Shown here piece by piece: positions 15,001-18,000 of a stretch of 25,537 bases of DNA (within the stretch, counting starts at the first letter, position 1; each line of letters begins with the position of its first letter). A program made the position numbers. The stretch comes from a virus (lineage: Duplodnaviria; Heunggongvirae; Uroviricota; Caudoviricetes), in IMG/VR virus record IMGVR_UViG_2698536454_000004; one strand, given 5' to 3'.

Positions 15001-18000
15001 GGTAAAGGCTTCCGGCAGGTTTTAACACCCGCCAGAACTGGGCCAGACAGTGGTCCAGCCACTTAAGGTAATCTTCGTCCCCTTTCCACTGATTGTCCCA
15101 GCCGTTGGGTTTCACCTTGAAGTACGGCGGATCGGTAACAATCAGGTCAATGGAATCATCAGGCAGGGACTGAATAAAATGCAGGCAATCAGCGTTGATT
15201 AAATCAACACTGTTTATTTTTACAGTATTTTTCATGGATCAGTAAGCGTAACTCTGGTAGGCTCACTCTGCTTTTGCGCTAAAGCAGTGGGCCGTGGTTC
15301 GCTTGTGACCAGTAAGCATGAGCGAATGGCTGGCAGGTGCTACCAACACCCACCAGCCGCCCATTTTCACAGCAGGAAACCGCCATTACTGGCAGCGTCT
15401 GAATTTATTCCCGTACCCGCCGTTATCCTTCGCCAGACCCGCCAGAACTAACTGAGTCAGTATTAACTGGCACCGGGCTTCGCTTACTCCGGTAGTTCTC
15501 GTCATCATGCGTGGCGTTACCCACTTGTCAGCAGGTAAGAAATGAAGGACTGCGGCGGCGGTTTCTGTCATATCTTGCTGTTTTAGCATGTCTTTTTCCC
15601 TTCTGGTTAACATGACATACCAATAACTCTTGTCTAAAAAGCCAGCAAGATAAAAAGTCAGTATTCACGACCACCAGCGTGTTTACTGTACTGCACCAAG
15701 TTTACGGGTACAAAAAACCCGCTCAGTGGCGGGTTGCTATCACAGCTATATATTTACTTATTATGCCGTTACTAACATTTATCTTCGACATATAATCGAA
15801 AACAAGGTTTGCTTAAAACTCTGCTTTCATTTTATCCGGGAATTTTTTATTTGCAGCATAATAACTACCAAGTACATAAGCGTTCATTTGCTGCTCTACA
15901 TCAACCCGACATGCCGCACTAGAACAAGCTCCACTGATAAGCCCAAAAGAACTCCCTTTAGCAGAGAGATCAGCTTTGATTTCCTCTACAGTGTTTTTCC
16001 CCATAGCAACTACACACCCTGTCACAATATATCTAGCTTTCACATCATCCATGCTAAGGATAGTAGTTTTCGCAATTTTGCTGTATCCATCATTTTTATA
16101 AACATCCATGGCAAACGCACGGCAATCTGTATAATACGGACTTGCTTTAACTTGCGAATACTCAGGTAATTTCATACCTGCACAACCAACTAAACAAAAA
16201 CCTATCGCTGCTATTAATACCTTTTTCATTACAGTCATAACCTAGAAGCATCATTGAAACTAATTTATTAAATAACCATCGAGTTTCTGGAATACAGACG
16301 TTAACCATCTCTCCAAAATCTAAAAGATAATAAGAAAAAATGTTTAACGCACCAATCCATTTCATAGTTTCATGAGACATCAGGCACAAAAAAACCCGCT
16401 CAGCGGCGGGTTTTTGACATTTACCAACGGTAGACATACAAGGCCCATCGTTGAGAAAATCTTATCCATATTTTTTGAAAAATGCAAGTATCACGTCGAC
16501 ATCTTCGGCGAAAATTATCTATCTTGTCACTTTTCTCAATTGCGATTCAGCATACGCTTCTTCCTGCCAGCACTTTGTAACCAGTTTATTAATAACGTCT
16601 GCATATCCTTTGTACCACTGATAATCCGTCAGGTCCGGTACCAGTTTCTGGACATGATGCCGCGCCAGTGTGGTTGGTAAACGGCTAAACCGGTTGCCAT
16701 TGCAACGCCCACAAATCTTATAAACAGGCACACCATGAAGCCGGGTTCTTTTTTCATCCAGGACAATACCTTTACCCTTACACCCTCTGCACGCTGTGCT
16801 GACTTCTCCCTTACCATGGCAATGCTGACATAGTTCCTTCACCCACTCTTCCTTGATAACAGATTCCCCGCTTCTGGAGTGTTTCACCACTTCGCGCAAT
16901 ACATTATGAAATCCAGTACCAGCACAATGCTCACAGCGAGCCTTACTTGCCGCAGACCTGGAATAATCAGCAAAGGCAAAATTCACAAGGTAAGGGATGA
17001 TCTGTAACCGGGTTTCTTCACTCAATTTGTTCAATGTCGGGTTATCCAGTGCCATCGCGTAATTGAGCAGACCTTCAATCGCAAATTGAGGATCCTGAAC
17101 ACCAACTTTTGCCAGGAATAAGGCAAACCCAAGCGGTGCTTTCGACTGCACCATCCCCTGCGCAGCCATCACATCCGTAATCGTTAAACCACCTGAGCCT
17201 GTCGCCGGTGCGTCATCGCTCAATTTTGGAGATTTTGGGGAGTAATATTTTGGTAAGGCTTCAAGGTTCATGCTCGTTCTCCACTTACGCCAGTACGCCA
17301 ATTGCCAGCGCACGATCGATAAAACGAAATATCAGCTCCAGCTGGGAGCCATACTTCTCTTCAAATGCCACGGTATCCGCATGCAGCTCGTCGTGATGCT
17401 TTCTGCACAAAGGCAACACAAAGAGGTCATGCGCTTTTGTACCCATTCCCCCCTGACCGTGGCCTATCAGGTGGTGGGGATCATCAGCAGGCTTTCCACA
17501 ACATGCACACGGCTGTGTCTTAACCCAGCGCGTGTACTTTTCATTAACCCAGCGGCGGCGTTTTGGGCGTAACATAAAAGACTCCGGCGACTCCGGATCC
17601 ACTTTCAGCGCCAGCACCTTTTTTGCCTTATCCTGGATGATGCTGGTGGCAGGAACCGAAGGCACAAGGTCACTTTCCCGGGTGACAGACGGCACAACAG
17701 GCTTTGGTAATCTCAGTGCCTTACGGGCTGCACTTTCCGGTAAGGCATCCGCCAGGTCATTACGAATCAGCCACCAGCACAGTTCCGGCATTGTCACAAC
17801 GTGACTATCATCAAAACCGAGATCCCGACGCACAACAGACAACACCCAGCGGGCACAGTTATCCGTTGCCATTGATTCCAGCCGTTCCGTGAACTGATCG
17901 CGCAGCTGGTTATCGCAGTGCCAGCACAGACGGATTGCGCCCGGAGCGTGTCGCATTGTGGTCATGTTCTCGCTGTGCCAGTCGGAATGAGGCCACTGGC

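Follow-up and report, generated by a model that had tools for sequence, protein, structure and literature searches.

The operators of the SOS regulon are released when RecA* stimulates cleavage of the repressor LexA, and a number of mobile elements have genes controlled in the same way, among them tum of coliphage 186, antC of N15, rstA of CTXphi, the colicins and the integron integrases. A different kind of lock is known from the com-mom operon of phage Mu, where mom follows a small regulator gene and a translation-initiation region that is structured; the Mom protein does not belong to the methyltransferase family considered here, and it is kept in check by OxyR, Dam-sensitive sites and the C activator, not by LexA. 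The antirepressors of the Gifsy phages illustrate the general principle of LexA-controlled mobile-element genes (PMC8072944; PMC12527982). For M.EcoGII, a prophage enzyme that methylates adenine in any context, the native lysogen shows no expression (PMC5778455); constitutive production is deleterious and yields slow, unstable cells (PMC5778455; PMC12707154), and its authors presume that induction turns the enzyme on so that it counters restriction (PMC5778455). This silence is stated both in the original paper (PMC5778455) and in a 2025 review (PMC12707154); no repressor is named in them, and LexA and the SOS response appear in neither text. Here we describe a putative LexA operator located inside the gene for an M.EcoGII-type methyltransferase in the virus record IMGVR_UViG_2698536454_000004, a lambdoid (pro)phage that is 99.5% identical to phages mEp460 and Ayreon over positions 14100-16300. 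The whole stretch of 25,537 nucleotides was analysed and is referred to below as the window. The best explanation of the site, to which we assign a probability of about 0.7, is that of a genuine operator for host LexA, acting as an SOS-released lock on the methylase.

The box reads CACTGTTTATTTTTACAGTA (also written caCTGTttatttttACAGta) on the plus strand at positions 15208-15227 and TACTGTAAAAATAAACAGTG on the strand of the gene. It covers nucleotides +9 to +28 of the methyltransferase open reading frame (ORF), beginning with the last base of codon 3 and ending with the first of codon 10 (..AAT ACT GTA AAA ATA AAC AGT G.., coding for N-T-V-K-I-N-S-V). In a preliminary description, made from the sequence of the window alone, it had been presented as a near-consensus SOS box in the first codons of a beta-class methyltransferase, with no second CTGT-N8-ACAG site having an A/T spacer in the non-coding regions scanned, and on each of these points the description was right: 16 of 20 positions agree with TACTGT(AT)4ACAGTA, and CTGT-N8-ACAG occurs a single time in the 25.5 kb when both strands are scanned. 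Such a bare eight-base core is common, being found at least once in 34 of 100 shuffles of the window, and the full 20-mer was therefore scored with the Lewis heterology-index (HI) matrix. We rebuilt this matrix by regression on 140 of the sequence/HI pairs that PSOSP Table S1 gives for candidate boxes of E. coli K-12 (PMC12527982): the index is additive per position, and a symmetric matrix was recovered with a maximum error of 3.5e-5, save for the penalties at the invariant CTG and CAG, which every listed site possesses and which do not affect the score of the present box.

With an HI of 6.84, the box falls among the E. coli operators of the same table, where uvrA/ssb scores 6.98, hokE 6.72, lexA box 1 6.40 and uvrB 6.11; the low-HI cluster of strain K-12 extends to about 13.6, and the whole K-12 genome holds only some 10 distinct sites with an HI as low as this, classic operators among them (PMC12527982). 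Far from dropping to a low score once its flanks are counted, the box ranks first in the window, with the second-best 20-mer (HI 14.2) more than 7 units behind. By exact calculation with a first-order Markov model, a window of this composition is expected to hold 5.4e-4 sites with an HI of 6.85 or less, and under the local, A+T-richer composition the expectation is about 2e-3. The box was picked out of many windows, a selection caveat that applies to this score, and the HI alone is strong but not decisive evidence for an operator. The site has the palindrome, the invariant CTG and CAG and an HI within the LexA-binding range, and binding of LexA at HI 6.8 is very likely.

A survey of 185,579 species genomes, with one genome per species, returned 80 loci whose methyltransferases share 50-93% protein identity. 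A box at the same offset, with HI values of 4.5-10.5, is present in nearly all of the approximately 55 Enterobacterales and Morganellaceae homologues examined (60-93% amino acid identity), as well as in phages phiP27, Stx2a_WGPS2, 1720a-02, phiNP, Hafnia yong2, Morganella IME1369_02 and the N15-like phiKO2. In the aligned phages, that is, Stx2a_WGPS2, phiP27 and Citrobacter phiNP (82-84% nucleotide identity) together with Hafnia yong2 and Morganella IME1369_02 (70-73%), the pattern CTGT-N8-(A/C)CAG stays in place despite changes in the peptide. Over all loci, 61 sites with an HI of 9 or less lie in the zones from -260 to +60 (24,960 bp in total), versus 4 in 285,938 bp of flanking sequence. 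The motif is thus found above chance and conserved at orthologous positions.

The same conservation is visible in the choice of codons, for which 52 distinct sequences were compared. Thr4 is encoded by ACT in 50 of 51 cases and is the most constrained of 55 four-fold-degenerate codons with a conserved amino acid, in which the commonest third base reaches 0.49 on average. At codon 8, AAC, TCC, CAC and ACC (N, S, H or T) are all in use, the third base being always C, contrary to the local A/T trend. The codon for Ser9 is AGY throughout and never TCN, that for Ile7 is always the rare ATA, and Lys6 never uses AAG; codons 10-13, immediately outside the box, vary freely. What variation there is within the box is confined to positions 1, 7, 10-11, 14-15 and 20, all tolerant positions of the LexA matrix, and the frequent change of AAACAG to ATCCAG yields the alternative standard right half-site. 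Judged from these alignments, the box is under selection as a DNA motif, and it appears highly probable that it is a selected LexA site.

More distant homologues provide a second line of evidence. Those of Vibrio, Aliivibrio, Psychromonas and Shewanella (50-58% identity) begin with another N-terminal sequence, and most of them lack an intragenic box; 13 of these 19 possess instead a box with an HI of 4.0-7.6 situated 150-195 bp (typically about 170 bp) upstream of the start codon. In the 10 that were aligned, a -10-like element immediately adjoins the box (TATAAT, TAGAAT, TATACT or similar, in several with a preceding TG, TGnTATAAT-like); then come an almost invariant leader, about 140 nucleotides long and holding a terminator-like hairpin, and GGAG and ATG. 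A box next to a promoter-like element is found in the Vibrio-type homologues only, and not at the intragenic position. In Vibrio litoralis, the methylase lies downstream of a phage tail-type gene and ends in a bidirectional terminator, next to which a convergent gene encodes a long protein without an obvious phage role; from this arrangement the V. litoralis methylase is read as a stand-alone, LexA-fronted unit. One gene family has therefore kept LexA boxes in two architectures, so that LexA control of the methylase looks like a selected trait and is hard to explain otherwise. The box may lie at the ORF where the gene is embedded in a late operon and at the promoter where the gene stands alone, an operator at the gene itself blocking any upstream source of transcription.

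The Vibrio-type leader is an element of its own. Situated between the LexA-box/-10 promoter and the Shine-Dalgarno sequence with its ATG in Vibrio, Aliivibrio and Psychromonas (loci L072-L086; for example L075:1328-1502), it runs from GAUGCCUUGAGUACCUGAGACCCA through GGAGAGGAAGCA and the terminator-like hairpin with its U-run to GUAUUCAAGGCUCU, and its ends can pair, GCCUUGAGUAC with GUAUUCAAGGC. By its layout it looks like an attenuator or a riboregulator. Two Vibrio loci have, in addition, a second and very strong LexA box (L076 at +1354, HI 4.4; L082 at +1401, HI 2.35, relative to the methylase start), which lies about 300 bp 3' of the methylase stop and presumably fronts another SOS-controlled gene.

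The nature of the enzyme offers a reason for such a lock. Its 350-residue sequence matches Pfam N6_N4_Mtase (PF01555; 2.2e-42) and carries TDPPYF at residues 34-39 and FMGSGS at residues 310-315, in the order DPPY - target-recognition domain - FxGxG; M.RsrI is among the solved beta-class relatives. It is 81% identical over the full length (349 amino acids) to M.EcoGII, for which the protein sequence printed in Table S1 of PMC11551740 was used (with a few optical character recognition errors), and likewise 81% identical to the enzyme of phage 1720a-02, called very similar to M.EcoGII by Murray et al. (PMC5778455). Both the close full-length relationship and the motif order that define the M.EcoGII family are present, and by sequence the enzyme belongs to this family of non-specific, toxic adenine methylases; membership in a toxic family would therefore be the reason for a lock. 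Non-specific activity has been reported for reconstructed ancestors that start with MKNTVKI(N/S)SVELINADCLHY, as the protein of the window does (PMC11551740). The box is also associated with the M.EcoGII N-terminus itself: the peptide MLNTVKISSC recurs unchanged in Stx2a_WGPS2 and in Escherichia albertii locus L015, where it is encoded with TACTGTAAAAATATCCAGTT (HI 5.5), and 1720a-02 has the identical box at the same offset even though its residue 2 is Phe, not Leu. M.EcoGII of strain C227-11 was compared here as a peptide, the box DNA being that of Stx2a_WGPS2, L015 and 1720a-02.

The spacer of about 150 bp between a small upstream ORF and the methylase ATG is among the most conserved stretches of the locus, and much of it is predicted to fold. 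Three helices can be drawn: P1 (UGGGC/GCCCA, 15363-15359 with 15292-15288), P2 (GGCUGGUGGGUG/CACCUGCCAGCC, 15358-15347 with 15339-15328) and P3 (CUGCUUU/AAAGCAG, 15287-15281 with 15274-15268). The minimum free energy (MFE) of the leader is -64.7 kcal/mol (z = -3.8), and among 27 sequences 6 pairs are altered on both sides, a number equalled in none of 500 shuffles; since its helices covary, the leader itself must be transcribed. No Rfam family matches in or beside this stretch; sub-threshold matches to STnc130, isrK and the Trp leader lie 300-500 bp upstream and are probably due to chance. The leader may be a novel cis-regulatory RNA. No Shine-Dalgarno sequence precedes the start codon. CTGATC(C/T)ATG at the methylase start (15233-15245, minus strand) is retained by nearly all of the 27 homologues in the enterobacterial and Morganellaceae alignment, with a Dam site, GATC, at 15237-15240 within the conserved pre-ATG sequence; CTGATC(C/T) may be a translational or methylation-sensitive control element.

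How LexA might act from within a coding region is less clear. A consensus promoter scan returned nothing between the small ORF and the methylase ATG, and a position weight matrix (PWM) scan of 51 homologues found no conserved promoter position besides the hexamers that belong to the box itself; the strongest candidate of the window lies 455 bp upstream of the box and is not conserved. TGTGAAAAT at the start of the leader was considered as an extended -10 element and rejected: the TGTG-AAAT spacing varies by 0-2 nucleotides among homologues, phiKO2 has no TG there, and helix P1 needs the region to be transcribed. A terminator-like hairpin precedes the leader in lambdoid phages, and in phiKO2, which also possesses the leader, an annotated late promoter and terminator stand directly before it. 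With no promoter near the box, a transcribed leader and a terminator before that leader, the methylase is therefore probably reached by polymerases from upstream; the absence of a nearby promoter leaves promoter occlusion unsupported, and for this reason we infer a roadblock step. LexA, like PurR inside purB, is listed among the repressors that block elongating polymerase (PMC10310618), and roadblocks are known to stop sparse polymerases efficiently and to be dislodged by multiple polymerases from strong promoters (PMC4132739).

The scheme that we propose is the following. In the lysogen, host LexA would sit on codons 3-10 of the methylase gene and stop the rare RNA polymerases that leak past the upstream terminators, whether from the late promoter pR' or from a weak local promoter, while the structured leader without a Shine-Dalgarno sequence would probably serve as a second lock. 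Upon DNA damage, RecA* would drive the joint cleavage of LexA and of the CI-type repressor of the phage; Q-modified polymerases would then arrive densely from pR', find the operator empty or overrun it, and the methylase would be made and would modify replicating phage DNA, shielding it against restriction in the host infected next. During infection of an undamaged cell, dense transcription from pR' with Q could still get past LexA, as the downstream late genes require. The data themselves show the HI of the box, its selective conservation as DNA, the recurrence of LexA boxes in two architectures and the place of the enzyme in the M.EcoGII family; that LexA occupies the box in vivo, that it acts as a roadblock and what purpose this serves are what we infer from them, and for the roadblock mechanism specifically the odds are slightly below even. 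We regard as speculative, and rather doubtful, the more elaborate scheme of a three-layer lock, composed of the intragenic LexA roadblock, the leader RNA of about 135 nucleotides and a small winged-helix protein, in which the leader would represent a new class of cis-regulatory RNA (a translational switch, put-like or an attenuator) and, in Stx2 phages, the LexA site would couple basal toxin read-through to LexA.

Several observations weigh against an operator for host LexA. Consensus and PWM scans of the roughly 150 bp that precede the box brought up no sigma-70 promoter that is convincing and conserved, and the usual LexA mechanism, promoter occlusion, is not supported. A phage that enters a cell without DNA damage meets intact LexA, and since all late genes lie 3' of the box, transcription from pR' with Q must be able to pass the block. 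The need for Q, together with three terminators upstream, would be enough to keep the gene silent, and the added value of LexA is unproven. Moreover, a few enterobacterial and Morganellaceae homologues have no box at all, namely those of Pantoea, Enterobacteriaceae G50, one Rosenbergiella, Serratia microhaemolytica and two Morganella psychrotolerans loci, and likewise Aeromonas phiARM81ld and Serratia OS31; a Rosenbergiella homologue without the intragenic box has one of HI 4.7 at -318.

The preliminary description had also pointed to a phage paralogue of LexA about 4 kb away, which is indeed there, 4.3 kb from the box, and had suggested LexA or this paralogue as the regulator. The part concerning host LexA is supported by the comparisons above. 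According to the other part, the box would be read mainly by the 108-residue LexA-domain protein, a non-cleavable product of the early operon that would time the methylase and the late genes and might re-silence host SOS genes in lytic growth. This protein has a full LexA DNA-binding domain (Pfam 2.9e-19) that aligns one-to-one with residues 2-69 of E. coli LexA; its helix 3 reads RSVNAAVEHL where LexA has RSPNAAEEHL, the wing ARGI is kept, and of the residues that we take, from the LexA-DNA complex 3JSO, to be DNA contacts, S39, N41, A42, E45 and R64 are retained and E44 is replaced by V. It could plausibly read CTGT half-sites. It is found in 63 phage records, many of them with the boxed methylase, and the two occur together in mEp460, Ayreon, Stx2c phages, cdtI, SfV, 1720a-02 and Stx2a_WGPS2. 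Yet phiP27, phiNP, Morganella IME1369_02 and phiKO2 all keep the box and none of them is among the 60 of 63 paralogue records that were listed; the box spans many genera, and canonical LexA promoter boxes take its place in the Vibrio-type homologues. Host LexA is therefore the common denominator, and not the paralogue. The dimerisation/S24 domain of LexA is missing from the protein. Most probably it is a further ligand that may shape timing, and not the primary one; we consider it unlikely to be the main reader. Another possibility would be that LexA does bind, with the whole late operon (lysis, virion and stx2 genes) as its target, or an antisense promoter with a TACAGT -10 reading back through the leader. 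The boxed methylase is first or early in the late transcription unit of lambdoid and N15-like phages, directly behind the late promoter and terminator of phiKO2 and between Q and stx2AB in Stx2 phages, and on the plus strand TACAGT combines with a weak -35 to a promoter score of 7.1. Every LexA box, however, brings such a hexamer with it, and a promoter score is reached there in only about 14 of the 51 sequences; were the late operon tightly blocked, the phage could not grow lytically in cells without DNA damage, and the LexA-controlled unit of V. litoralis is the methylase alone, ended by a terminator, which points to the methylase as the regulated gene. We therefore hold a late-operon or antisense target to be quite improbable.

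The two remaining explanations do without LexA. In one, the palindrome is an mRNA hairpin (ACUGU...ACAGU) behind the start codon that controls translation initiation or message stability, its resemblance to a LexA box being incidental. The MFE fold predicted for the leader and the beginning of the ORF does form this stem-loop, and translational control would be expected of a gene with no Shine-Dalgarno sequence and a conserved leader structure, but the 27 sequences contain zero compensatory changes in it, in 9 of 27 the fifth pair is lost through an A-to-C change that LexA tolerates, positions in the would-be loop are conserved as the LexA matrix demands (for example, box position 13, always A in ATA/TTA), and distant homologues carry their boxes in untranscribed promoter DNA. 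A hairpin as the sole explanation is thus very unlikely, although a LexA operator might have a secondary role as an mRNA hairpin. In the other, a match has arisen by chance in A+T-rich coding sequence, a caution already voiced in the preliminary description, and owes its apparent conservation to the conserved peptide MKNTVKINS and the 5' region in general. Bare cores do turn up in a third of the shuffles (34 of 100), A-rich codons are favoured at the 5' ends of genes, and the box was chosen from many windows. These points are outweighed by the expectation of 5e-4 per window for the full matrix, by the survival of the core through amino acid changes at codon 8, always C-ending, with Thr4 the most constrained of the 55 four-fold codons and the adjacent codons 10-13 varying freely, and by the independent LexA boxes upstream of the distant homologues. 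Synonymous and non-synonymous substitutions alike have spared the CTG/CAG core in nearly all of the approximately 55 homologues, promoter boxes recur in the Vibrio type, and a chance origin is barely credible.

The features of the locus are listed in Table 1. The methylase was earlier called an orphan moron gene. Terminator-like hairpins bracket the module on both sides, and a convincing promoter belonging to it did not come out of the scans. The late promoter pR' should lie immediately 3' of Q, about 1.2 kb upstream of the box and on the same strand, and the holin, endolysin and Rz genes (minus strand) follow the hairpin behind the methylase. An ORF of the small type stands before the leader and the methylase in every lambdoid or N15-like phage locus inspected, which suggests that it may be a dedicated methylase regulator; it has no Pfam family match. 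At the equivalent upstream place in the Aeromonas homologue (phiARM81ld; L169:2016-2243), an annotated Com-like translational regulator is found. The end of a second methyltransferase ORF, of the Dam-like N6-adenine type (19808-20494, minus strand), overlaps the ORF for the LexA-domain protein, which is followed by rusA, and this order of genes recurs in many related phage annotations. In mEp460, a near-consensus LexA box, TACTGTATGTAAAAACAGTA (HI 3.3; L001:12522-12541), lies inside the cI-like repressor gene region; the immunity region of the window differs: it has a cI-like S24 repressor (23125-23751), and a box of this kind is absent.

Table 1. Features of the methylase locus and of the LexA-domain gene in the window.
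Feature	Position	Strand	Basis
Predicted LexA (SOS) box	15208..15227	.	Sequence, HI 6.84, same-offset boxes in homologues, codon constraint
Orphan beta-class N6-adenine DNA methyltransferase, assigned to M.EcoGII family, 350 aa	14183..15235	-	Translation, Pfam, identity
Conserved structured leader, from small ORF to ATG	15236..15372	-	Alignments, RNAalifold, covariation
Small ORF, 67-75 aa	15386..15613	-	Winged-helix or TrmB-like annotation in phiKO2 and phiP27
Terminator-like hairpin with T-run	15716..15735	-	5' boundary of module, upstream of small ORF; Ayreon terminator annotated there
ORF of unknown function	15813..16238	-	Gene order, between Q and small ORF
Antiterminator Q gene	16519..17313	-	Annotation of mEp460 and Ayreon (99.5% identical)
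Terminator-like hairpin with T-run	14160..14176	-	Just past methylase stop, before holin gene; Ayreon terminator annotated there
LexA-DNA-binding-domain-only protein, 108 aa, no S24 peptidase domain	19485..19811	-	Pfam LexA_DNA_bind, 2.9e-19

A conserved LexA operator in the gene would provide a concrete and testable mechanism for the silence of M.EcoGII, a widely used reagent. The region is present in 1,087 of 5,426 complete E. coli genomes, or about one in five, and if our interpretation is true, a DNA-hypermethylating enzyme joins the SOS regulon in each of these. It would be predicted that lexA-defective strains, or lysogens in which the SOS response is chronically induced, may gain promiscuous N6-methyladenine, which would affect mismatch repair, gene expression and restriction barriers. 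The boxed methylase is positioned between Q/pR' and stx2AB in phages encoding Shiga toxin 2 (Stx2) of types Stx2a, Stx2c and Stx2e; in WGPS2 (L003) and phiP27 (L004), annotated tRNA genes accompany stx2AB, and in 1720a-02 (L168) the boxed methylase lies ahead of a truncated stx2A, the HI values of the boxes in these three phages being 5.5-7.8. A predicted LexA site thus stands in the transcription path of the toxin, and LexA may also damp basal Stx2 read-through. Full-text searches of the literature collection used returned no paper that links LexA to M.EcoGII-type phage methyltransferases or quotes the box or leader sequences, and a paper on the pR' region of Stx phages mentions neither the methylase nor LexA. 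SOS-box searches restricted to the regions upstream of genes can miss functional intragenic sites.

When compared with the systems described so far, the box shares with the canonical E. coli SOS operators (recA, uvrA/ssb, sulA, umuDC and the colicin genes) the CTGT-N8-ACAG motif, the A/T spacer and the range of HI. Those operators overlap or abut a promoter or a transcription start, whereas the present one is intragenic, with no recognisable promoter within about 150 bp. Intragenic roadblocks (PurR in purB, the downstream operators of LacI, the C protein of the Kpn2I restriction-modification system) likewise have the repressor 3' of the transcription start, in purB within the coding region; compared with these, the LexA roadblock is a proposal, and the nearest candidate promoters are 0.45-1.25 kb away. 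M.EcoGII and M.EcoGI, prophage methylases of E. coli O104:H4 C227-11, have the beta-class motif order and the prophage setting in common with the enzyme of the window, non-specificity having been demonstrated for M.EcoGII and the reconstructed ancestors and the window allele being assigned by sequence. In its logic, the closest analogue appears to be com-mom of phage Mu, which also contains a toxic modification gene of broad specificity that is silent in the lysogen and under multi-layer control (PMC12707154). The small upstream ORF and the structured leader are shared with it, although the small ORF is not a Com zinc finger. As in other LexA-controlled mobile-element genes, host LexA would tie a gene of the element to DNA damage, and by its sequence the box would join that known class. 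Known targets within the class are a switch gene (antirepressor, replication or integrase) or a toxin; here the target would be a DNA-modification enzyme, and the operator is intragenic in the enterobacterial and Morganellaceae methylase lineage. It is this intragenic location, together with a promiscuous DNA methylase as the putative target, that sets the locus apart from its known relatives.

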